Positions 10,001 to 57,462 of a stretch of DNA of 64,000 nucleotides are shown here, piece after piece (within the stretch, counting starts at the first letter, position 1; each line of letters begins with the position of its first letter). The DNA is taken from assembly GCA_044360285.1 (NCBI GenBank), contig JBIKKP010000001.1, positions 6,874-70,873 of the forward strand, in the 5' to 3' direction. The notes below the pieces were generated by a model. That model was not told where the DNA came from. It searched no databases and saw only the letters and a list, made by a program, of their open reading frames with translations. This stretch comes from Rickettsiales bacterium. GTDB lineage: Bacteria; Pseudomonadota; Alphaproteobacteria; Rickettsiales; UBA1997. Made by a program: the position numbers and the translations under genes.

Positions 10001-10304
10001 CATGTTGTTTTTTGAGTGCTTCGTTTGCGGTTTTGATGTCGAAAAGCTCGACCAAAAAATCCTCAAGAAGTCGCGCCAGATCTATTAAAACAGCTGATTG
10101 ATGTGGAAGAGAAAAAGCCGGCGGATTTTTTTTCAGCGCCAAAAAATTTTCTGCAACTTGCAGATTTTTTTGCGCCAGAAATTCGAAAAATTTTTGATCA
10201 ATTTTCAGCAAACCTTCGCGCTCATAAAGATCGGCAAACTCAACTCCAAAGCGGCTGCGCAAATGTTCTTCTAAATTGTTATTTTGGCTAGTTTTTGAGA
10301 GCAT
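7023..10304 (-). CDS. large fused FAD/NAD(P)-dependent oxidoreductase (GltD/DPD-like Fe-S + pyridine-nucleotide-disulfide oxidoreductase fused to a PyrK-like FAD/2Fe-2S reductase module)
   Basis: Cys clusters CIFCHK..C, C..CMKSC. Rossmann motifs VCGLGPAGYTLA and VIGGGLTAVD. C-terminal FRLQNYH, GPSGTP, IGGGRGNQP and CMMKGVCSQC. Confidence 0.65.
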   Translation of the reverse strand: MLSKTSQNNNLEEHLRSRFGVEFADLYEREGLLKIDQKFFEFLAQKNLQVAENFLALKKNPPAFSLPHQSAVLIDLARLLEDFLVELFDIKTANEALKKQHDDLQKIYVARREFVQRVVAKKFSQCPAGVDGLRIIADLKISFTEIDELEQKLADEILAEKNLEVLENYSAWALYSQEGRKLHKEGALFILPQKIDHQNLVEKAPEKKSRDGFDLTDKGFGLNRALAESHYCIFCHKQEKDSCRKGFEQKNPAEGKVEIKVDPLGIRLEGCPLKEKISEMNLLKSQGSSLGALAIAALDNPMLAGTGHRICNDCMKSCIYQKQDPVDIPQVETRVLKDVLALPYGFEIYSLLTRWNPLNLQENLPKENSGKKVLVCGLGPAGYTLAHYLLNDGHEVVAIDGLKIEPLNSEISGVDIFGSRQKFRPIKFLDEIYEPLSSRVIAGFGGVVEYGITSRFDKNFLKVIRLLLERRKNFRMFGGLRFGSSITDKIAFEQYGFDHVALCIGAGRPNIINIKNNFAKGIRMASDFLMSLQLTGAFKEELFTNLQVRMPALVIGGGLTAVDVACEVQAYYLVQIKKFAKRVSLIGREKIFAILSVEEKEIAEEFLRDEEKLRRGITNFCSVKILYRKKMQDSPAYRLNHQELTKAFEEGVEFVENVTPLAADLDEFGAIKNLLCADEKQFACRSLFVAAGTSPNLSPVIEDALDIPFAGKYFKALRPGSVITKIDENSKKAVSFLGDLHPLFEGNVVKAMASAKLGYQEISEILSKTRSDKTQITRDFAADFLVKIEKVERLSNHAVEVFVKAPLLARQTKVGQIFRLQNYHAFAKKIGDQLNAMEGVTVTALFVDEERGVISGIVVETGGSTSLIKNFKSGEPCVFMGPSGTPTEIPQKEKVVFIGGGRGNQPLTALAEAFSANGCEVIFFAGYRKNDFVVRQERMENSCAKMIFAVEEEAPNLKLQKPSSLQLQGSIIDAIKTYFAKNPQKIDRIFAIGNDAMMHEVAKLRHQNLVTEFAQARFAITSLNAPMQCMMKGVCSQCLQKRVNEKGEEDFFYSCASQDQNTDKLDFAHLQARCEQNALMEKTTKLWIEFLGI

Positions 10305-13119: not shown

Positions 13120-13632
13120 TTACTCTGCGCTGTTAGAATCCTTATTTTTACGGAAAGCATCAAGAGATATAACTTTAGCCGACAAATCAACGCCAGCAGA
13201 CTTCTTATCGGTATTTAAATTTTTATTGGCTCGATTTGATTCACCAAAATCAACGTCCTCAGGATGTTCAAACTCGCTATAATTCATGCTGAACTTAAGC
13301 GCAAAATTCATCGAAGGATCAGAAAAAGAAGTGATTGCCTTGTATGGAACGTGCAATTTTTCATATTTTCCAACGAAGCTCAGCGACACTTCAAAATAGT
13401 CATCTTCAACAACGAGGCCGCGATATTGGTGCTGCATGACAATGGTCATTTCTTCCGGATATTTCTCGAGCAGCTTTTTAGAAATCACAGTTTCAGGAAA
13501 GCGCGTAGCAAAGGTAATGACGAAGTAATGCTTCCCGGGCAAACCAGTTTTTTGTACTTTTTGCAAGCTGGCACGAATCACAGAACGCATCGCCTTTTCA
13601 ATTATGTCGTCATATCCGATTTGGTCTTGCAT
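13120..13632 (-). CDS. sspB: ClpXP adaptor SspB (alphaproteobacterial type)
   Basis: KYPEEMTIVMQHQY, VPYKAITSFSDPSMNFALKF and a C-terminal VISLDAFRK ClpX-binding-type tail. Start set to M28 of the track ORF because the upstream 81 nt overlap the ssrA terminator. Confidence 0.8.
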   Translation of the reverse strand: MQDQIGYDDIIEKAMRSVIRASLQKVQKTGLPGKHYFVITFATRFPETVISKKLLEKYPEEMTIVMQHQYRGLVVEDDYFEVSLSFVGKYEKLHVPYKAITSFSDPSMNFALKFSMNYSEFEHPEDVDFGESNRANKNLNTDKKSAGVDLSAKVISLDAFRKNKDSNSAE

Positions 13633-13656
13633 GATGAAAATGAGTAAAATTAGGCC

Positions 13657-13695
13657 GAAAAAAATGCCCGGGCTTCTGTTGAAAGGTGCCCGGGC
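13657..13695 (-). terminator. rho-independent terminator of ssrA
   Basis: Minus strand reads GCCCGGGC (13695-13688) - 14-nt loop - GCCCGGGC (13673-13666) followed by ATTTTTTT. Confidence 0.7.
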
Positions 13696-14125
13696 GAACC
13701 CCGACAAGATCACTTATGCTAAGCAGCTACAGCCACTTTAGCAAATTCGAAATTGTCATTAGCAAAGTTATCGTTTGCGTTTACTTGTTTTGAACGGATG
13801 TCCGTAAAGCTTGCGCCTCTAAGACCGGCAGTTTCTCAACCGAGTAAAATCATTCCCTTTAGCGAATGTCGAAAGCTATTCACCCCCCTAACCGAAATTT
13901 TCAAGAGAATGGCTCAAATAACCTTCGTCACAGATTTTCATAAATCTGGGAGAAGGCGTTGCCACACAAGCGATGTGCCTTGAAATTAGATCGTAAGCCG
14001 AAAACAGCCGTTAAGGCTGTTTTCTCGGTGGAGGTGCTGGGTACCGCCCCCAGGTCCATAACGTTTATTACGAAATGCATTTATCACCATAGCGTGCAGC
14101 CCTTACGAACCACAAGCGCCAAGCA
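13657..14125 (-). ncRNA. ssrA: tmRNA, circularly permuted two-piece type (acceptor piece upstream, coding piece downstream); outer boundaries approximate
   Basis: Coding-piece 5' end is GGGGGTGAATAGCTTTCGAC from ~13887 downward. The acceptor 3' end is T-arm CTGGG-GGCGGTA-CCCAG + CACCTCCACC, ending at 14027. Pairing gives G3:U70. The tag frame is ...GCT AAT GAC AAT TTC GAA TTT GCT AAA GTG GCT GTA GCT GCT TAG (13763..13719) = ANDNFEFAKVAVAA. Confidence 0.85.
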
Positions 14126-14165
14126 AGCTAGGAACAAAAAAGAAATTAACAAGAGACGTAAAAAA

Positions 14166-38263: not shown

Positions 38264-39528
38264 TTCAAACCCTCATAGAAGCGCGCAGCATCTTGGTGGC
38301 AAGTGATTCGATCAAAGTTGATTGATTCGATAAAAACTCCCTCCAAAGAGCGTGCACGCGACAAAGCAACGTAGGCTTGGCCAGGACTAAAAACGTCAGA
38401 CAAGTCGCAAGAAATTTTGTCCAAAGTAAGCCCCTGCGCTTTGTGAATTGTCATCGCCCACGCTAAAATCAGCGGCACTTGATTGAGACCAGCATCAACG
38501 ACAAGTGCTTTTTTTTCTTCGTCAAAGCGCTCTAGCAGCCATTCTTCAGAAGTTATGGTTAAAATTTTGCCATTAGCAAATTCAACAATTGGATAATTTT
38601 TTTTCGGTGAAAATTCGCGAACAACGCCAAGCGAACCATTGATAATTCCTTCTTTTTGGTAGGTGTTTTTTATCATCATCACCTGCGATCCAACCTTTAA
38701 CCTCAAGGCTTGAGAGGCTAAGCAATTTTTTTTGAGAAACTCAATTTTCATCTCATCGCCAAAATATTTCGCCTCAAAAACAACTTCACTGCGCGGGATT
38801 TTTTTAAGCTCAACTTCATTAATTTTTTCGACCTTGAAATTATGCGTCGTCAAAACTGTTGGCTTAATTACTGAGTTTTTATCTTCGGCTCTAACCCTTG
38901 ATTCCAGAGCTTCGCGGTCACTTTTATCTAAATAACCGAAACGTAAATTATTCAGAATTTTTATGAATTTTTGATCAGTTTGGCGGAAGGTTTCTTGCAG
39001 GTCGAAAACCTTTAAATCTAAGGCGCGCCAACTTGGCGAGTTAAAACAAAAACTAAATTGCCCTGATTTTGCGACGGGAGGAAGTTGCAAGAAATCACCA
39101 AAAAGCATGATTTGCAGGCCGCCGAAGGGTTTATTATTTTCCCTCACACCACGCAAAACTAAATCCAAAATCTCAAAAATTTCCGCAGAAATCATTGAAA
39201 TTTCATCAATTGCCAAAGCCCGCGCTTGCTTGATGCGCCGGCGAATTTTGCTGAATTTTTTGCTGAAAATATTTTTGACAATTTCCTCAATTGGCAAATT
39301 TGCCAAACCAATTCCCGCCCAAGAGTGAATAGTGGCGCCGCCAATGTTAACGGCTGCAACGCCGGTGCTGGCGGTAATTTCTAGGCCAGAATTTGCGTAA
39401 TTTCTTTTGAGAAAATTTAAGAGATAAGATTTGCCGCTGCCCGCGCCACCTGTCACCAAAAGGCTTTTACCATCTTCAAATGCGCTTATGACTTCTTGTT
39501 GCTTGGAAGAAAGAGAGGAGAGTTCCAC
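38260..39528 (-). CDS. Pif1/RecD-like SF1 helicase
   Basis: Walker A GGAGSGKSYLL, DEISMIS, LFGDFLQLPPV, TIHKAQGLTLD and YVALSRARS. Confidence 0.75.
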   Translation of the reverse strand: MELSSLSSKQQEVISAFEDGKSLLVTGGAGSGKSYLLNFLKRNYANSGLEITASTGVAAVNIGGATIHSWAGIGLANLPIEEIVKNIFSKKFSKIRRRIKQARALAIDEISMISAEIFEILDLVLRGVRENNKPFGGLQIMLFGDFLQLPPVAKSGQFSFCFNSPSWRALDLKVFDLQETFRQTDQKFIKILNNLRFGYLDKSDREALESRVRAEDKNSVIKPTVLTTHNFKVEKINEVELKKIPRSEVVFEAKYFGDEMKIEFLKKNCLASQALRLKVGSQVMMIKNTYQKEGIINGSLGVVREFSPKKNYPIVEFANGKILTITSEEWLLERFDEEKKALVVDAGLNQVPLILAWAMTIHKAQGLTLDKISCDLSDVFSPGQAYVALSRARSLEGVFIESINFDRITCHQDAARFYEGLK

Positions 39529-42964: not shown

Positions 42965-46388
<3,424 letters not shown>

Positions 46389-46437
46389 GGAAGCTACAGA
46401 TTCAATCCTCTAAATGTAAAATTCTTTTTCGTATAAA

Positions 46438-47370
46438 ATGATTAAAAAAAATGACATCATCGATATCGTCTCGCCTGGTACGGCGTGCAGTTTGGCAGAG
46501 ATTTTAGAAATTGAAAATTACGTCAAAAAAATTGGCCTAAAATCACGAATTTTTTTGCACGATGAAACTGCGATGAATAAATCAGCAAGCAGCGAATTTG
46601 CAGGAATCGCGCCAAAAAAACGCTTCGAACAATTTAAAAAATCAGTTGAAAGCAAAGACTCAAAAATAATTTGGTGCACGCGCGGAGGCTACGGCAGCGC
46701 GGAAATTCTGCAGTTTCTAGAAAAACTTCCCAAACCAAAAACTAAAAAAATTCTTATCGGATTCTCCGACATAACTTCGCTAAACAAGCTGTTGATTGAG
46801 AAATGGAATTGGCAAATTGTGAGTGCACCGATGCTGATCCAGCTTGCCTCAAACACGGTTTCAAAAAAAGCCGAAAAAGGAATTTTGGATTTAATTTTTG
46901 GAAAAAATTCTGAATTAAAATATCAGCTAACGGCGCTTTCAGCTAAGAAATCGGCGGTTGTGGCGCCAATTGTTGGAGGATGTTTAAGCGTTCTTTGCGG
47001 ACATTTTGGCACAAAAAATAATCTCAACTGGCAGGGAAAAATTTTATTCCTCGAAGACGAAGGAGAAACAGGCGAGCGGCTTGATCGCTATTTTAGTCAA
47101 TTGCTGACAATCATTGGTGAAACAAAAAAAATTCCTGCGGCAATTTTACTTGGAAATTTTTTGCAGGCCAATTTGCACGGCACTCCGAAAGCAAAAAATG
47201 TTGAGATTGCCATCGAGAAATTTGCTAAAAATTTAGCTGAAAAAAAATTATCAATTCCACTTTTTGTGGAAAAAACTAAGTGCCTTGGACATAGCAAAGA
47301 CATGCTTCCGCTCGTGCTTGGTTCGGAAGCGAAAATTGATAAGAATTTGCAACTCACTCAAATCCTCTAA
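46438..47370 (+). CDS. ldcA: LD-carboxypeptidase (muramoyltetrapeptide carboxypeptidase, S66)
   Basis: GGYGSAEIL, GFSDITSL, LEDEGE, GH. Confidence 0.75.
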   Translation: MIKKNDIIDIVSPGTACSLAEILEIENYVKKIGLKSRIFLHDETAMNKSASSEFAGIAPKKRFEQFKKSVESKDSKIIWCTRGGYGSAEILQFLEKLPKPKTKKILIGFSDITSLNKLLIEKWNWQIVSAPMLIQLASNTVSKKAEKGILDLIFGKNSELKYQLTALSAKKSAVVAPIVGGCLSVLCGHFGTKNNLNWQGKILFLEDEGETGERLDRYFSQLLTIIGETKKIPAAILLGNFLQANLHGTPKAKNVEIAIEKFAKNLAEKKLSIPLFVEKTKCLGHSKDMLPLVLGSEAKIDKNLQLTQIL

Positions 47371-47387
47371 CACCGCCATCTTCTACC

Positions 47388-47521
47388 ACCTCGTCATCCT
47401 TTACAACCTCGTCATCCTTTACAACCTCGTCATCCTTGAATTGCATAGCAATTCGAGGATCTCTTTTGCTCAACGCTAAACAAAACTAGATCCTCGAAGC
47501 CTTTCGGCTTCAAGGATGACG
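47388..47521. repeat. palindromic element (family A) whose left arm is tandemly triplicated (18-bp unit)
   Basis: acctcgtcatcctttaca at 47388-47405 and 47406-47423, with a third diverging copy from 47424. Outer arms cgtcatccttgaa (47428-47440) / ttcaaggatgacg (47509-47521). Inner arms cgaggatc / gatcctcg. Hairpin gaagcc-tttc-ggcttc. Confidence 0.85.
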
Positions 47522-47635
47522 GTGTTAGATTTCAATGATGAAGAGATGGCGATGTGATTTTAATTTGTTTTTTCTTTAGCGGCTTTTTAAAAAATTTCCG
47601 CAACAGCCCTTACCTCTAGATTTCCCAATTGAAAA

Positions 47636-48820
47636 ATGACTGAATCGACTCACGAAAATAAACGAATGACCATCAATTTTGGACCACAGCACCCGGCAGC
47701 GCACGGTGTGTTACGTCTGGTTTTGGAAATGGATGGCGAAGTTGTCACTCGCGCCGACCCTCATATTGGCTTGCTGCATCGTGGCACTGAGAAACTCATC
47801 GAACACAAAACTTATCTGCAAGCTGTTCCATATTTTGACCGCCTAGACTATGTGTCGCCAATGTGTCAGGAGCATGCTTACGCCCTTGCTGTTGAAAAAC
47901 TTTTGGGCTGCAAAATTCCGCTGCGTGCCAGCTATATTCGTGTGCTCTTTTCTGAAATTACACGCCTGCTTAATCACATCATGGCAGTCACAACCCAGGC
48001 CCTTGACGTTGGGGCAATGACGCCACTTTTGTGGATGTTTGAAGAGCGCGAAAAAATGATGGGATTTTATGAAAAAGTTTCGGGATCGCGCATGCACGCC
48101 GCTTACATTCGCCCAGGCGGAGTTCACCAAGACTTGCCAGACGGTCTTGAAGACGAGATCATGAAATTCACCAAGCAGCACGAAAAATACATCGACGACT
48201 TGGAAGGGCTGCTTACCGACAACCGAATCTTCAAGCAGCGTATGGTTGAAATCGGCGTGGTGTCAAAGCAAGAGGCTTTGGATTGGGGGTTTTCTGGACC
48301 AATGATTCGCGGCTCGGGAATTGCTTGGGACCTACGCAAAAGCCAGCCTTACGAAATTTATGACCAACTTGAGTTCGATATTCCAGTTGGAAAAAACGGC
48401 GATTCTTATGACCGCTATCTCATCCGCGTTGAGGAAATGCGTCAGTCGCTGAAGATGATCAAACAATGTTTGGAAAAAATGCCGGAAGGCGAAATCTGCG
48501 TCGATGATCCAAAAATTGCCCCACCAAAAAGAGGCGACATGAAGGGCGACATGGAATCGCTGATCAACCACTTCAAACTTTACACCGAAGGCTATCACGT
48601 GCCAGCCGGCGAGGCTTATGGCTGCGTGGAAGCACCAAAAGGTGAATTTGGTGTTTACGTAATTTCGGATGGCTCAAACAAACCGCACCGCTGCCGCGTT
48701 CGTGCGCCAGGTTTTGCGCATTTGCAAGGTTTGGAATTTATGGCGAAAGGCCATATGCTTGCTGACGTTGTTACGGTGATCTCAACGCAAGACATCGTAT
48801 TTGGCGAAGTCGATCGTTAA
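47636..48820 (+). CDS. nuoD: NADH-quinone oxidoreductase subunit D
   Basis: [22 protein letters not shown], ...[10 protein letters not shown] terminus. Confidence 0.95.
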
Positions 48821-48837
48821 CCAAAAAATTAAGAATT

Positions 48838-49671
48838 ATGAAACTAGCTGAACTCTGTCAAAAATTTGAAAAATACAGAATCAAAGGCAGCGATGCTGGT
48901 AGTAAAACAGAAAAAACGCTTAGCGCTCTAAGCGATGCAGAGTTAAAAGATATTCTTGGACTTCCCGAAAGCGCCACAAAAGATGATGTAAGACTTGCTC
49001 ATCGAAAAGCTTTGATAACAGCCCATCCAGATAAAAATCCTAACGACCAAGTGACGGCTCAAGGAGTTTTCACAAATCTAGCCGCACTAAAAGAGGAACT
49101 CGACGGTCGCTTCGATGGAACTAGAAAGCAAAAAGCGGCGACAACTACTCCTTCACCTAGAACAGCAAGCGCTCCAACTGATTTCTCTCACGCGCAAACG
49201 AGACATTCTGGCGCTACCCGCCCTTCAATGGTGCACAGCTTTAGCCAAAGAACCTCTTTCTTCGACGACCCACTTGCTGATATTTTAAGAGACCTTTGCC
49301 AAATTTTTTCTTTTGGATTTAATCAACGTCCAGCGGTTCGTACCGCAACTTTCCCTAGCCATTTTAGCCAACATCGGCCACAGGCTCACTTTCATCCAGA
49401 ATTTGGTCACGGCCTGCGTTTTGCAACCCCAAGACCTGCGCCACAACCAGCGGCAGATCTATTTGCTAATTTTTTATCTCAATCTTTTTTCTCTGGAACT
49501 CGCCAATCACCTTTCGCGCTAGTATTTACAGTTCATCTTATCGATTCTGTACCTTTCGTTCCGCTGTTTTGCAGCAAAGGGAATGGACTTTCTGACGCTT
49601 ATAAAAAAATTCCATCCCACAACCAAATTCCGCAAACCACTCAATCTTTAGAAAGAGGCGGCGGAAGATAG
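48838..49671 (+). CDS. J-domain protein with a low-complexity P/S/F/Q-rich C-terminal half
   Basis: LGLPESATKDDVRLAHRKALITAH63PD65KNPND. No Gly/Phe region, zinc finger or DnaJ C-terminal domain. Confidence 0.7.
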   Translation: MKLAELCQKFEKYRIKGSDAGSKTEKTLSALSDAELKDILGLPESATKDDVRLAHRKALITAHPDKNPNDQVTAQGVFTNLAALKEELDGRFDGTRKQKAATTTPSPRTASAPTDFSHAQTRHSGATRPSMVHSFSQRTSFFDDPLADILRDLCQIFSFGFNQRPAVRTATFPSHFSQHRPQAHFHPEFGHGLRFATPRPAPQPAADLFANFLSQSFFSGTRQSPFALVFTVHLIDSVPFVPLFCSKGNGLSDAYKKIPSHNQIPQTTQSLERGGGR

Positions 49672-49680
49672 CAAGGCCAG

Positions 49681-49708
49681 TTGACATTTGTTTTTTCGCC
49701 AATACAAC
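49681..49708 (+). promoter_or_regulatory. candidate sigma-70 promoter for rpmJ
   Basis: TTGACA (49681-49686), 16-nt spacer, TACAAC (49703-49708). Confidence 0.3.
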
Positions 49709-49769
49709 GCGCCGCCTTTGTTTTCCGGGTGCAAATTCAGCTTTGGATAATTCAAACTTTTAGGATCAG

Positions 49770-49895
49770 ATGAAAATTTTTAACTCACTTAAAGCCGCTA
49801 AAAAAAGAGACAAAAACTGCAAAGTAGTGCGCAGAAAAGGCCGTCTTTACGTCATCAATAAAGTAAACCCTCGCTTCAAAGCTCGCCAAGGCTAG
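49770..49895 (+). CDS. rpmJ: 50S ribosomal protein L36
   Basis: Not in ORF track because it is too short. AGGA Shine-Dalgarno, then [41 protein letters not shown] (41 aa), the alphaproteobacterial-type L36. Confidence 0.9.
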
Positions 49896-50012
49896 TTCTT
49901 CTGCAGATTTTTGGGCCTTGCTCTAACTCGTTAGGCAAAAGACGTTTGCGCCTGCCCGCCTTACTTACCCAAATTTCGCAAAGAATTCAGTTAAAGAATA
50001 ACTGGTTAAAAG

Positions 50013-50972
50013 ATGTCGTCTCAAGCCCCCAAAATCAGAATTGGCAGCAGAACCAGTAAATTAGCCCTCGCACAAGTCGCAGAAATCAACTCTCTGCTTT
50101 CGTTGCATATTGACCCAAACCAAATCGAAATCGTGCCAATCACCACTTCCGGTGATAAAATTCAAGATCGCAACCTTGCCGATATTGGCGGCAAAGGTTT
50201 ATTCATTAAGGAACTTGAGGAAGCGTTAATTCGCAACAAAATCGACATCGCCATTCACTCGGCAAAAGACGTTCCGCCACAACTTCACGAAGAAACAACG
50301 CTTGCCGCTTTCAGCAAAAGGCTTTCGGTCAATGACTGTTTTATTTCCAAAAAATTTACCTCAATTGAAGAACTGCCGCAAGGCGCTTTAGTTGGCACTT
50401 CGTCGGCGCGCCGTAAAGCTATTTTGCTGCGTTTACGCCCCGACCTAAAAATCGTAAATTTCCGCGGCAACGTCGACACTAGGCTGCGCAAAGTTGAGGC
50501 TGGTGAAGTTGATGCAACGATTCTTGCTTTATGCGGTTTGCAGCGCCTTTCAAGAAACGGAAAAGTTGTCTGTCCAAAAGGTTATGAAGAGGGAAAAATC
50601 ATCGATGAAAACATCATGCTGCCCGCTGGAGGACAGGGCGCACTAGCTATCCAAATCAAAAAATCGAACCAAGAAATTTTTTCGCTGTTACAAAAAATTA
50701 ATCATCTTGAGACGCAAATTGCCCTAAAATGTGAACGCGCTTTTTTACGCGAACTTGGCGCTTCTTGCTCTACTCCCGTCTCGGTTTATGCCGAAATCAA
50801 AAATGATGAAGTTGTGTTAAAAACGATGATTTTGGATTATGACGGCAGCGAGATTTTTGAAACTACTTCAAGTTGCAAAATTGACTTAGAAGCGGCAATT
50901 GCGCTTGGATTTGCAGCAGCGCAGCGCACAAAAGAAGAAGCAGCTAAATTACTCAAAAAAATCTGCCGCTAA
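50013..50972 (+). CDS. hemC: porphobilinogen deaminase (hydroxymethylbilane synthase)
   Basis: RIGSRTSKLALAQ, GDK...L.DIGGKGLF.KELE, SSARR. Confidence 0.95.
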   Translation: MSSQAPKIRIGSRTSKLALAQVAEINSLLSLHIDPNQIEIVPITTSGDKIQDRNLADIGGKGLFIKELEEALIRNKIDIAIHSAKDVPPQLHEETTLAAFSKRLSVNDCFISKKFTSIEELPQGALVGTSSARRKAILLRLRPDLKIVNFRGNVDTRLRKVEAGEVDATILALCGLQRLSRNGKVVCPKGYEEGKIIDENIMLPAGGQGALAIQIKKSNQEIFSLLQKINHLETQIALKCERAFLRELGASCSTPVSVYAEIKNDEVVLKTMILDYDGSEIFETTSSCKIDLEAAIALGFAAAQRTKEEAAKLLKKICR

Positions 50973-53501: not shown

Positions 53502-54214
53502 TTAGAATCTTTTTAGATATCCAAAGCGAACTGTCGAATAGTGCGAATCAAGTCCAGCAAGCTTCCCACTATATTTTTGAAAGGAGAAGCGAATCGCATC
53601 ATCAGAGTTTTTAAAATGCTTAATTTGAAATCCAAGCCCGTAAATCCCTGTTGTTTCATGGTTTTTTTGGGCGATTAATGAACCATTTGACTTAACATAG
53701 CTTGTGCGGCTTCTCACATCTGCAGCGCCAATTTCAGCAAAAAGCTCGAAGAGATTTTTTTCAACTGGCATAAAAAATAACGCCGAAAAATTCACGTGAT
53801 CCATTTTAAAAATAGCGCGTCGAGCCAGTGGTCCGGCATCTTGAAAGGCTATGTTATCAAGCTCAGTTTGTGCCCAATTCCACTGCAAACCAAGATAATC
53901 GTGAATGCGGAAATGTTGACCCAAAGCAATGTTTTCAATGTCGCGCAGCTGGCTGAAAATATCGTGCGAAGTTTTGAAATCTACATTCGGCCCGCCGCCT
54001 GTAATCACCGGAGCGCTATATTCAAAGGTGAAATAACTTTTTAGATAAAGTTTTGATTTAGATAAAGTTTTGACCACGGATTGGTAGTAATCGAGCTAAC
54101 ATTACCCGCTCCATTATTTGATGATCCACCAGCTGGCGGTGTGTTGTAAGGCCATTCCTGACTGAAAGCTGATTGCGAGAACAGTAAAAATGCGGCGGCT
54201 AAAAATTTTTTCAT
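53502..54214 (-). pseudogene. outer-membrane beta-barrel protein gene interrupted by a 17-bp tandem duplication (frameshift)
   Basis: AGGAGA + ATG at 54214 gives the signal peptide MKKFLAAAFLLFSQSAFSQ..., which stops at 54041. The body ORF 53502..54077 is in another frame and ends ...VRFGYLKRF. Removing one 17-bp copy restores a 231-aa ORF. Confidence 0.75.
54040..54073. repeat. perfect 17-bp direct tandem duplication
   Basis: tttagataaagttttga at 54040-54056 and again at 54057-54073. Confidence 0.95.
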
Positions 54215-55758: not shown

Positions 55759-57462
55759 ATGCCAGCTCCAGTAAATATAACAGATATCGGTGCGCGCCTA
55801 ATTGAGAAAAAGGTAATTTCTGAAGATCAGCTGTCGATTGTCCTAAAAGAACAAACGCGGCTCAAGGGCGCAAAGACCGTCGGTGCACTTTTGGTGGAAA
55901 TGGGTTTTATCTCGGAAGGCGCTCTGGGAGAGATTCTAAACGAATCAAGCGGCATTAAAAAGTTCGACATAAAAAGCGCAATCATTGATGCCAAGCTGGT
56001 TAAAAAAATTCCAAAAGAGTTTGCGCTGCACAATAAAGTAATCCCGGTTTCATATTCGCAAGGCGTTATCAACGTTGGCATGAACGATGTTTTTGACATC
56101 GTTGCTGTTGACCAAGTTCGTAAATTTTTCCCGCCAAATTTCCACATCAATCCGGTTTATATTCCAGAAGCCGATATCATTCAGGCAATCGACCAGTACT
56201 ATGGCTATGAGATGTCGATTGAAGGGATTTTAAAAGAGATTGAGAGCGGAAATAACAAAAACATTAACGACGAAACACAGCTACGCGGCGACTATAAAAG
56301 TCCGATGGTGCGTTTGCTTGATGCAATTCTAAGCGACGCCGTGCACCGCAGCGCTTCCGACTTACACTTTGAGCCAGAGGGTTTGTTTTTGCGTATCCGC
56401 TATCGTATTGACGGAAAAATGGTGCAGATTCGCAGCATCCACAAAGATTATTGGTCAGCAATTGCAGTTCGTATTAAAATTCTTGCCGGCATGAACATTG
56501 CCGAAAGCCGAAAGCCGCAAGATGGACACATCAACACTGAAATCTTGGGCCGTAAAATTGACTTTCGTGTGTCAACGCAACCAACAATTAACGGCGAAAA
56601 TATCGTCATGCGTATTTTGGACGAAAAGCAGTCCATCCTTTCACTTGATAAGCTTGGCATGTCTGAACACAGCATTTCGCTAGTGAAAAAAGTTGTACAG
56701 CGTCCGGAGGGCGTAATCATTCTGACTGGTCCAACTGGTTCTGGTAAAACCACTACGCTTTACACGGTTTTAAACTACATCAACTCGATTGATAAAAACA
56801 TCATGACCTTGGAAGACCCAGTGGAATATCACATTCCGCTGATTCGCCAGACTAACATCAAATCCGACAGCGGCATGGATTTTGCTTCGGGAATTAAAGC
56901 AATTTTACGTCAAGACCCTGACGTGATTCTTGTTGGCGAGATTCGCGACAAAGACACCGCGGTCACCGCAATTCAAGCGGCGATGACTGGTCACCAAGTT
57001 TATACTTCGCTGCACACTAACGACGCTCTTGGCGCAATTCCACGTTTGATGAATATCGGCGTGCCAACTTACCTAATGTCTGGATCGTTGATTTGCGTGG
57101 TTGCTCAACGTTTAGCACGAAAACTTTGTCCACATTGCAAAAAAGAAAGTCCGCTCGATGCCTTTGAAAAAAGACTGCTTGGACCTAAATACAGCAATGT
57201 TGAAAAAATCTTTAAAGCAGTTGGTTGCGAAAAATGTCGCGGCGGTTATAAAGGTCGTGTCGTTGTTGCAGAAGTTTTACCTTTTGATCGCGAACTCGAT
57301 GAACTCATCGTTAGCAACGCCACCAGAAAAGAAATGCTTGATCACGCATTAAAAAATGGCTTCGTGCCAATGGTGGAAGACGGTATACAAAAAGTTGTTG
57401 CCGGAATTACCGATCTCAAGGAACTGATGCGGGTGATCGACCTAACTGATCGCATGAACTAA
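55759..57462 (+). CDS. GspE/PilB-family secretion ATPase (type II secretion / type IV pilus)
   Basis: T2SSE N-domain, Walker A GPTGSGKTTT, Asp box, His box, and tetracysteine CPHC...CEKC. Confidence 0.85.
   Translation: MPAPVNITDIGARLIEKKVISEDQLSIVLKEQTRLKGAKTVGALLVEMGFISEGALGEILNESSGIKKFDIKSAIIDAKLVKKIPKEFALHNKVIPVSYSQGVINVGMNDVFDIVAVDQVRKFFPPNFHINPVYIPEADIIQAIDQYYGYEMSIEGILKEIESGNNKNINDETQLRGDYKSPMVRLLDAILSDAVHRSASDLHFEPEGLFLRIRYRIDGKMVQIRSIHKDYWSAIAVRIKILAGMNIAESRKPQDGHINTEILGRKIDFRVSTQPTINGENIVMRILDEKQSILSLDKLGMSEHSISLVKKVVQRPEGVIILTGPTGSGKTTTLYTVLNYINSIDKNIMTLEDPVEYHIPLIRQTNIKSDSGMDFASGIKAILRQDPDVILVGEIRDKDTAVTAIQAAMTGHQVYTSLHTNDALGAIPRLMNIGVPTYLMSGSLICVVAQRLARKLCPHCKKESPLDAFEKRLLGPKYSNVEKIFKAVGCEKCRGGYKGRVVVAEVLPFDRELDELIVSNATRKEMLDHALKNGFVPMVEDGIQKVVAGITDLKELMRVIDLTDRMN

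Follow-up and report, generated by a model that had tools for sequence, protein, structure and literature searches.

The stretch of DNA analysed here, 64,000 nucleotides (nt) of a Rickettsiales bacterium (assembly GCA_044360285.1, contig JBIKKP010000001.1, positions 6,874 to 70,873 of the forward strand; hereafter the window), raises the question of what a J-domain protein with an orphan C-terminal tail does in such a lineage, and which Hsp70 it would serve. The gene concerned, here called the J gene, is an open reading frame (ORF) at 48838..49671 on the + strand, with an ATG start and a TAG stop, and encodes 277 amino acids. Its product is best explained, tentatively and with a confidence close to but short of an even call, as a young, lineage-restricted class C J-domain protein that would act inside the cell as an accessory modulator of DnaK, an explanation that draws on analogy with described J-domain proteins as well as on the gene itself.

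The first-pass annotation had placed a J-domain at residues ~35-100 of this protein, with the codons of the HPD motif at 49024-49032, and both placements hold. The Pfam check that it proposed gave a match to DnaJ (PF00226) of 33.3 bits (E = 5.4e-8, residues 38-88), above the gathering cut-off of 27.8 bits, and H63-P64-D65 are read from the codons named. Across 56 aligned J-domains, H63 and P64 do not vary and D65 hardly does (at least 90%). With this 56-sequence alignment as input, AlphaFold2 predicted residues 30-95 with a predicted local distance difference test score (pLDDT) of 93-96; a model from the single sequence was uninformative (mean pLDDT 39.5), and the alignment-based model was taken instead. 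When the model was compared with the PDB using Foldseek, the top nine and most of the top 30 matches were J-domains, with target TM-scores (template modelling scores) of up to 0.70, the weak E-values of that search being due to the inclusion of the disordered tail in the 277-residue query. Every match at E ≤ 0.01 in a phmmer search of the PDB was also a J-domain. Judged by profile match and predicted fold together, the N-terminal ~100 residues are a genuine J-domain module. The SALSDAELKDI motif of the segment preceding the J-domain runs into helix I, and residues 29-39 are the same in the sister species described below. The HPD motif is what triggers ATP hydrolysis by Hsp70, and the residues of Escherichia coli DnaJ that contact DnaK are R22, K26 and R27 in helix II and K48 and K51 in helix III (PMC8215388). 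In an alignment with the E. coli DnaJ sequence, the helix-II contacts are retained here as R52, R56 and K57.

Outside the J-domain, the protein has no CxxCxGxG motif of a zinc finger, with three cysteines in all, and the tail contains no DnaJ_C, DnaJ_CXXCXGXG or other Pfam family when six frames of 49090-49770 are searched at E ≤ 10. The NCBIfam models for DnaJ (cut-offs 338-619 bits) reach 14-26 bits and that for DjlA (cut-off 162 bits) 17.3 bits, in each case covering the J part alone, whilst neither Pfam nor NCBIfam gives an HscB match at E ≤ 0.1. The earlier statement that the protein resembles neither DjlA nor HscB is borne out, as the J-domain is N-terminal, no N-terminal hydrophobic segment precedes it and HscB gives no match; the same lack of a hydrophobic segment at the N-terminus agrees with the claim that there is no signal peptide. 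It had also been claimed that the G/F (glycine/phenylalanine) region, the zinc finger and the client-binding domains of DnaJ and CbpA are all lacking. This stands for the zinc finger and the client-binding domains, but needs a caveat for the G/F region, as the tail is glycine-poor and phenylalanine-rich, with a stretch FFDDPLADIL...IFSFGF that is weakly G/F-like. The sole hydrophobic stretch of the protein, residues 226-244 (FALVFTVHLIDSVPFVPLF), contains a histidine, an aspartate and two prolines, has a Hessa-scale sum of +6.7 kcal/mol and a pLDDT of <50 with no helix predicted, and lies 33 residues before the C-terminus; it is probably not a membrane helix. Because the J-domain is all that it has in common with DnaJ, the protein classifies from its sequence as a class C (type III) J-domain protein, a class defined in this way and ranging in length from 54 to >1000 amino acids (PMC8215388).

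The J gene is narrowly distributed. The exact 277-residue protein occurs on eight contigs from several freshwater metagenomes, and the lake samples with the exact gene include SRR10955855, SRR10955194, JGI 3300034064 and ERZ27272073; the DNA of the four that were fetched is 100% identical to the window over 2.9-5.2 kb, and the 90%-identity cluster of the protein contains no variants. An exhaustive phmmer search of 1.84 billion representative proteins returned 63 matches, made up of the protein itself, one true homolog and 61 generic J-domains (E ≥ 3e-9). The homolog (P0002) is 90 amino acids long, is 49% identical over residues 1-85, and is encoded at the same site in a sister species, where mreC-mreB-leuA-ldc-nuoD are followed by a 16-nt spacer and then the J gene. 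A word-indexed search of 5.8e9 proteins that used the whole protein as query brought up no further family member, nor did scans of JGI metagenome contigs with peptide patterns and a degenerate DNA pattern, and no J-domain ORF was found in 80 related loci (~800 kb) or elsewhere in the window. The first-pass annotation had recommended examining the distribution among relatives, and would have counted membership of a conserved alphaproteobacterial co-chaperone family against its reading; with one sister copy and a site that is mostly empty, the protein clearly does not belong to such a family.

That site is the interval from nuoD to rpmJ, a variable slot. Sequence extending to hemC is available for 49 related loci; most of them run from nuoD over ~100-150 nt straight to rpmJ and on to hemC with no gene between, and a few carry unrelated genes in the slot. 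Judged by eye from their translations, these genes encode membrane proteins of 334-378 amino acids resembling Cache-type sensors, a sensor histidine kinase of 618 amino acids, and an FAD-type (flavin adenine dinucleotide) oxidoreductase spread over two ORFs together with a 305-amino-acid protein of no known kind. From nuoD to hemC, conservation of the DNA is confined to rpmJ, with 77-90% identity in >50 related loci, and a short stretch at 49681-49726, the latter in two relatives. The block leuA(-)/LD-carboxypeptidase/nuoD/rpmJ/hemC (44844-50972 in the window) is conserved in ~50 related metagenome-assembled genomes (MAGs; loci L003-L065), and the solitary nuoD is therefore an old feature of the clade that is unlinked to the J gene.

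Two possible routes into this slot were considered and rejected. There are no flanking direct or inverted repeats beyond chance at the J gene and no adjacent integrase or transposase, which argues against insertion of a mobile element. An origin from a phage, a plasmid or a defence system was set aside, as 50,697 phage records were searched without a match, as were plasmids, IMG/VR contigs and PADLOC; matches to PHROG are marginal and to the J part only (E ≥ 0.002), and the neighbours of the J gene are housekeeping genes. The restricted distribution, together with the frameshift in the sister copy described next, points to a recent gain in a variable slot that has already been damaged in one of its two carriers. 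With nearly all relatives lacking it and the sister species carrying a version cut short by a frameshift, the J gene also reads as a dispensable accessory gene and not as a conserved component of the chaperone machinery.

In the sister species, the reading frame is shifted just past the HPD loop and the protein stops at 90 amino acids. The continuation of the sister sequence (KNELDGRFNGTIKQKTAASATTTRTASNAP) is homologous to residues 85-113 of the window protein, but in the -1 frame, and if repaired this frame would still end after ~150 residues. The same sequence is present in five contigs from different samples and assemblers, and the frameshift is therefore not an assembly error. Programmed frameshifting was considered, but no canonical X XXY YYZ heptamer was seen by eye in the permitted interval, and the shift is taken to be a mutation. 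All five sister contigs (L085-L089) end 130-241 nt past the J gene, with terminal sequence that has no match in the window or in the related loci; that they do so across samples and assemblers suggests a repeat or strong strain heterogeneity directly downstream of the sister J gene.

Comparison of the two species indicates how unevenly the gene is constrained. Flanking proteins are 99% (MreB), 98% (NuoD), 96% (LeuA) and 87% (Ldc) identical, with 0.44-0.55 synonymous (dS) and 0.006-0.07 nonsynonymous (dN) substitutions per site. In the J protein, residues 29-70, the core of the J-domain, are 67% identical, with a proportion of nonsynonymous differences (pN) of 0.19 against a proportion of synonymous differences (pS) of 0.51 (Fisher p 0.002), and residues 1-28 are 38% identical (pN 0.36, pS 0.78; Fisher p 0.005). 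For residues 83-113, compared across the two frames, identity is 61% (pN 0.23, pS 0.40) and the difference is not significant (Fisher p 0.11), nor is it for residues 114-160, where identity falls to 20% (pN 0.57, pS 0.68; Fisher p 0.21). As far as these values go, purifying selection is weak and detectable on the N-terminal J module only, and the distal tail appears to evolve neutrally, or almost freely.

The tail is 177 residues long with an isoelectric point of 10.4; serine, phenylalanine, proline, alanine, threonine, arginine and glutamine make up 63% of it, phenylalanine alone accounts for 11% and glycine for 5.6%. It had been described as low-complexity and disordered. The compositional bias and the disorder stand, as pLDDT drops below 50 at around residue 130, the one exception being a weakly predicted helix at 145-159, but the low complexity does not, as entropy is 3.2-3.9 bits per 40-residue window. 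No protein repeats were found in the tail, where no 4-mer is shared except LSDA, which is also present at residue 31 in the pre-J segment, and at the DNA level there is only a weak array of 13 nt x 2.9. Homology to the sister species can be followed as far as residues 83-113 (KEELDGRFDGTRKQKAATTTPSPRTASAP), whose counterpart there lies in a different frame. Beyond these, residues 131-277 match only a fragment of the same protein in the exhaustive phmmer search, and a word-indexed search of the 5.8 billion proteins with the tail alone has the protein itself as its sole match.

Despite this lack of relatives, the tail has some of the marks of a coding sequence. Its frame contains no stops where 5.3 are expected (39 of 20000 dinucleotide shuffles were stop-free, P about 0.002), GC content at codon positions 1/2/3 is 0.54/0.53/0.31, a gene-like periodicity, and the annotated frame scores best of the six by codon usage. 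The codon log-likelihood, on the other hand, is 0.10 bit per codon for the tail compared with 0.26 for the J part and 0.36 +/- 0.08 (minimum 0.20) for the genes of the window. The stop-free frame, the periodicity and the atypical codon usage together suggest a tail that is translated now, or was until very recently, and yet is unlike old, well-adapted coding sequence.

Two other derivations of the tail were tried and rejected. A relaxed tblastn search gave recurrent weak matches to the minus strand of hemC in several relatives; blastn, tblastx against the hemC of the window and tblastn without composition correction were all empty, which ruled out an antisense origin from hemC, and the weak matches are due to pyrimidine-rich composition. 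The tail was also searched for frameshifted DnaJ C-terminal domains or another gene, for which the six-frame Pfam search given above was empty and tblastn with 60+ J-proteins, plus E. coli CbpA, returned nothing meaningful outside the J part.

The FFDDPLADIL...IFSFGF stretch (FFDDPLADILRDLCQIFSFGF, residues 140-161) begins ~40 residues past the J-domain and may be a degenerate G/F- or DIF-type linker motif. In Smith-Waterman alignment, the tail alone scores 71 against the post-J region of a DNAJB6-type protein (P0055), compared with 34+/-6 for composition-preserving shuffles of the tail (z up to 6), and the forward tail outscores the reversed tail over 36 targets (p = 0.005), statistics that are inflated because it was their resemblance to the query that singled these targets out from 1.84 billion proteins. 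BLAST with composition correction finds no similarity between the tail and DNAJB6-type linkers. Where alignments of the exhaustive search continue beyond the J-domain, as far as query residues 170-208, the matched proteins are of class B and the DNAJB6 type, with one such cluster named 'DnaJ family protein B protein 6' and another including a nematode protein. In the PDB, which is strongly biased towards eukaryotic J-domains, DNAJB2 scores 33 bits, Ydj1, DNAJC5 and DNAJB8 fall within 30-33 bits and DNAJB6 is also among the best, compared with 20 bits for E. coli DnaJ and 18 bits for Thermus DnaJ. A degenerate G/F-type linker, possibly DNAJB-like in origin, is a lead and not a finding.

An internal modulator of DnaK is ranked first because the protein lacks both a signal peptide and a membrane segment, and because orphan class C J-domain proteins are common, and heterogeneous, in bacteria. 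The gene would have been gained in the common ancestor of the two sister species, in a freshwater Rickettsiales-like lineage, in the slot between nuoD and rpmJ. The part of its product under constraint would be the N-terminal ~100 residues, a short helical lead-in followed by the four-helix J-domain. By family resemblance, the basic face of helix II (R52, R56 and K57) would dock onto ATP-bound Hsp70 and the HPD loop (H63-P64-D65) would then trigger ATP hydrolysis. The default partner would be the bacterium's own cytoplasmic DnaK, and the role that of an accessory modulator and not of a general co-chaperone. The tail would be a basic, Phe/Ser/Pro-rich disordered appendage, maybe an extended and degenerate G/F-type linker, but not a conserved client-binding domain. 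Should this be so, the locus would capture a chaperone-recruiting module as an evolutionary transient, which was gained, kept a J module of ~70-100 residues whilst its tail drifted, and is already broken in the sister copy.

The lifestyle of the organism bears on which Hsp70 is within reach. The MAGs closest to the window come from freshwater lakes and carry the label Rickettsiales, in some cases 'Rickettsiales bacterium UBA1997'. Members of the UBA1997 family have been described as small rods attached to freshwater cryptophyte algae, that is, as epibionts (bioRxiv 10.1101/2023.01.31.526412). The window is placed in that family, tentatively, by its nuoD similarity and the gene order that it shares. 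As its relatives are described in this way, the host organism of the J gene is probably not intracellular; the lineage has been reported as a stage between free-living and intracellular Rickettsiales.

Several observations weigh against an internal DnaK modulator. At the positions of the helix-III contacts K48 and K51 the protein has T79 and A82, changes that could make its binding to Hsp70 weaker or shift it to another target. The sister copy carries a frameshift and ends at 90 residues, no gene in the window has a coding score as low as that of the tail, and on these two grounds the gene may be heading for loss and not be functional. The four fetched contigs, being identical, are uninformative on selection within the species. 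The dnaK gene is not within the window. The nearest generic J-domain matches are largely eukaryotic, something that would suit a secreted effector at least equally well.

The first alternative, which is unlikely but is the best placed of the competing explanations, is that the gene is a decaying remnant of a once longer J-protein, possibly of the class B CbpA/DNAJB-like kind, with no present function. Its client-binding domains would have been lost, and its 3' part would have drifted into a fortuitously open frame in the course of reductive genome evolution. The frameshift and premature stop of the sister copy are what this would predict, as are the near-equal pN and pS and 20% identity of residues 114-160, a tail codon score under that of every gene in the window, and the absence of homologs of the tail; the weak G/F-linker-like stretch could be a relic. 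Yet the 277-codon ORF is intact, with a tail that is stop-free beyond what chance allows and with periodic GC content at third codon positions, the core of the J-domain including the HPD motif is under purifying selection in both species, remains of DnaJ C-terminal domains were found in no frame searched, and the start codon and spacer are conserved.

Somewhat less probable still is a secreted effector that would leave the cell by, for example, the rvh type IV secretion system and whose J-domain would hijack the Hsp70 of a eukaryotic partner (presumably a cryptophyte). In that case the basic, disordered tail would be an export signal and/or serve in targeting, and the J module may derive from a eukaryotic DNAJB6-type gene. 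The first-pass annotation had suggested the recruitment of host Hsp70 by an effector from what is often seen in orphan J-domain proteins of intracellular bacteria, and for this protein the suggestion is speculative. The epibiotic habit reported for Rickettsiales/UBA1997 relatives would bring a suitable host close (10.1101/2023.01.31.526412), and the rvh system is inferred to be ancestral to all Rickettsiales (PMC9352585). The gene is lineage-restricted, fast-evolving and lodged in a variable slot, as is typical of genes for host interaction, the best J-domain matches in the PDB are eukaryotic (30-33 bits, against 20 bits for E. coli DnaJ), the matches that reach into the tail are of DNAJB6 type and include the nematode protein, and HopI1 offers a precedent (PMC4617103). 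Set against this, no secretion-system gene lies near the J gene, the window having only a PilB/T2SS-E-type (type II secretion) ATPase, and nothing in the sequence or its surroundings demonstrates export. The PDB is biased towards eukaryotes, and the DNAJB6-like similarity of the tail is affected by selection of the targets and unseen by composition-corrected BLAST. A truncated copy is tolerated in the sister species, the distal tail evolves neutrally, and the tail-only search brought up no J-protein relatives. In its boldest form, which is more doubtful again, a DNAJB6-type J module captured from a eukaryote would be delivered into the algal partner by an epibiotic, pre-intracellular member of the Rickettsiales and commandeer the host Hsp70. 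This would make it an early, still-evolving effector of host manipulation in a lineage transitional between free-living and intracellular life, a rare counterpart of HopI1 outside plant pathogens, and a handle on how host manipulation began in the order.

Very improbable, finally, is either a tail-anchored membrane J-protein of the DjlB/DjlC kind or a DnaK modulator derived from a mobile element or phage, as Rki is (a DnaK-perturbing ORFan J-protein whose C-terminal part is unrelated; PMC3486835), for although there is one hydrophobic stretch near the C-terminus and the gene sits in a variable slot, that stretch (residues 226-244) is interrupted by a histidine, an aspartate and two prolines, sums to +6.7 kcal/mol on that scale of Hessa, stops 33 residues short of the C-terminus and is not predicted to be helical, whilst phage records, plasmids and viral contigs gave no match, PHROG only marginal matches to the J part, PADLOC none, and neither flanking repeats nor an integrase was found.

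The coordinates of the J gene and its surroundings are collected in Table 1. The earlier observation that the J gene begins 17 nt past a solitary nuoD agrees with these coordinates: nuoD lies between the LD-carboxypeptidase gene and the J gene, and no further nuo gene is next to it. The region upstream of the J gene is A/T-rich and lacks a Shine-Dalgarno motif, which is usual for the genes of this window. No terminator-like site was found on the + strand from nuoD to the J gene and no promoter-like site upstream of the J gene; with no terminator between the two genes, co-transcription with nuoD is the simplest reading and is probable.

Table 1. Features of the J gene and its neighbourhood; positions are those of the window unless a locus is named.
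Feature	Residues	Position	Strand	Evidence or remark
nuoD (NADH-quinone oxidoreductase subunit D)		47636..48820	+	NCBIfam NuoD 625-634 bits; Pfam Complex1_49kDa 415.7 bits
A-rich 17-nt spacer, nuoD stop to J-gene ATG		48821..48837	+	16 nt in the sister species; conserved
Pre-J segment	1-36	48838..48945	+	Helix 3-12 confidently predicted; pLDDT ~90 for residues 1-10
J-domain	38-88 (Pfam); fold spans ~30-100	48949..49101	+	PF00226, AlphaFold2, Foldseek, phmmer
HPD motif H63-P64-D65	63-65	49024..49032	+	Codons CAT CCA GAT; also kept in the sister copy
End of helix III/IV and proximal linker KEELDGRFDGTRKQKAATTTPSPRTASAP	83-113	49084..49176	+	61% identity to the -1 frame of the sister copy
Orphan tail and stop codon	101-277	49138..49671	+	Basic, F/S/P/T/A/R/Q-rich, predicted disordered
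Phe-rich stretch FFDDPLADILRDLCQIFSFGF	140-161	49255..49320	+	Helix 145-159, pLDDT 54-59, the only one predicted in the tail
Sole hydrophobic stretch FALVFTVHLIDSVPFVPLF	226-244	49513..49569	+	Mean Kyte-Doolittle 1.8
rpmJ (ribosomal protein L36), downstream neighbour of the J gene		49770..49895	+	Pfam Ribosomal_L36 on the identical gene in L082
hemC, beyond rpmJ		50013-50972		
Genes in the nuoD-rpmJ slot of related loci		L004 7185-9529; L019 3155-4159; L020 2797-3801; L035 7266-8402; L044 7176-9032		

The rpmJ gene between the J gene and hemC was not mentioned in the first-pass annotation. Right behind the stop codon of the J gene lies a putative promoter, TTGACA-16 nt-TACAAC (49681-49708). 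The stretch at 49681-49726 weakly matches two related loci without a J gene (L010 and L011; 78-82% identity over 38-46 nt, E 0.002-0.006), and from its sequence and position may be the promoter of rpmJ, marking the right-hand border of the insertion. On the other side of nuoD, an 18-nt unit, TACAACCTCGTCATCCTT, occurs in three perfect-to-near-perfect copies in the ldc-nuoD spacer, at 47384-47437. Two facing hairpins of 12-13 bp, at 47432-47460 (+) and 47517-47490 (-), resemble a bidirectional terminator, and the TACAACCTCGTCATCCTT array overlaps the start of the first.

Elsewhere in the window, six ORFs have no Pfam family at the thresholds used: 2299-5544 (-, 1081 amino acids), 33683-36187 (-, 834), 62447-63664 (-, 405), 32300-32998 (-, 232), 6249-6956 (+, 235) and 53502-54077 (-, 191). 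The first two are candidates for lineage-specific surface or host-interaction proteins. A further ORF of 1093 amino acids at 7023-10304 (-) has a match to Pyr_redox_2 in its central part only (residues 371-699), and the RpoD protein encoded at 29758-32103 (+; 781 amino acids) carries ~160 residues before region 1.1 that match no family. A Pif1-family helicase is encoded at 38260-39528 (-; PIF1 131 bits plus a Pif1 2B domain), which also matches RecD-like PADLOC components. The secretion ATPase of PilB/GspE type lies at 55759-57462 (+; T2SSE 422 bits, MshEN domain), followed by apaG-like and tsaB-like genes, and no pilus or secretion operon is evident around it. The window also contains a two-piece (permuted) tmRNA of the alphaproteobacterial type at 13665-14156 (-; Rfam alpha_tmRNA, 145 bits), which marks the window as alphaproteobacterial, overlapping the 3' end of a mechanically called ORF at 13120-13713.

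Comparison with known J-domain proteins places the protein more clearly. The E. coli proteins DjlA, HscB and DjlB/DjlC are likewise J-domain-containing accessory co-chaperones, but DjlA has an N-terminal transmembrane segment and a C-terminal J-domain, HscB its own C-terminal domain and DjlB/DjlC a tail anchor; the features of DjlA and HscB are absent here, and there is no convincing tail anchor. CbpA and the class B proteins DNAJB6, DNAJB8 and DNAJB2 share with it an N-terminal J-domain followed by a Phe-rich stretch; unlike them, the protein is glycine-poor (5.6%) and has neither the beta-sandwich C-terminal domains nor the TSTxxVNGK motif of the DNAJB6 type. HopI1, a type III effector of Pseudomonas syringae, combines a J-domain with a disordered P/Q-rich region and binds plant Hsp70 (PMC4617103), and is similarly a bacterial protein that joins a J-domain to a disordered region containing proline and glutamine. 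In HopI1, however, the J-domain is C-terminal and the P/Q repeats are in tandem, whereas here the J-domain is N-terminal and the tail repeat-free; secretion of HopI1 has been demonstrated, whilst that of the present protein is hypothetical, and the two are related in the J-domain only. The protein sits more easily amongst the class C J-domain proteins (PMC8215388), in having only the J-domain in common with DnaJ, an intact HPD motif, the basic face of helix II and a length within the range of the class, although its non-J part matches no domain or family, it occurs in two sister species only and the helix-III lysines K48 and K51 are lost. Rki (ORF 057w) of phage RB43 engages DnaK specifically without generic co-chaperone activity (PMC3486835). 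Whilst Rki is phage-encoded and the J gene has neither a phage context nor similarity to phage proteins, both are ORFan J-proteins, and Rki provides a functional analogy for the modulator of DnaK that is preferred here.

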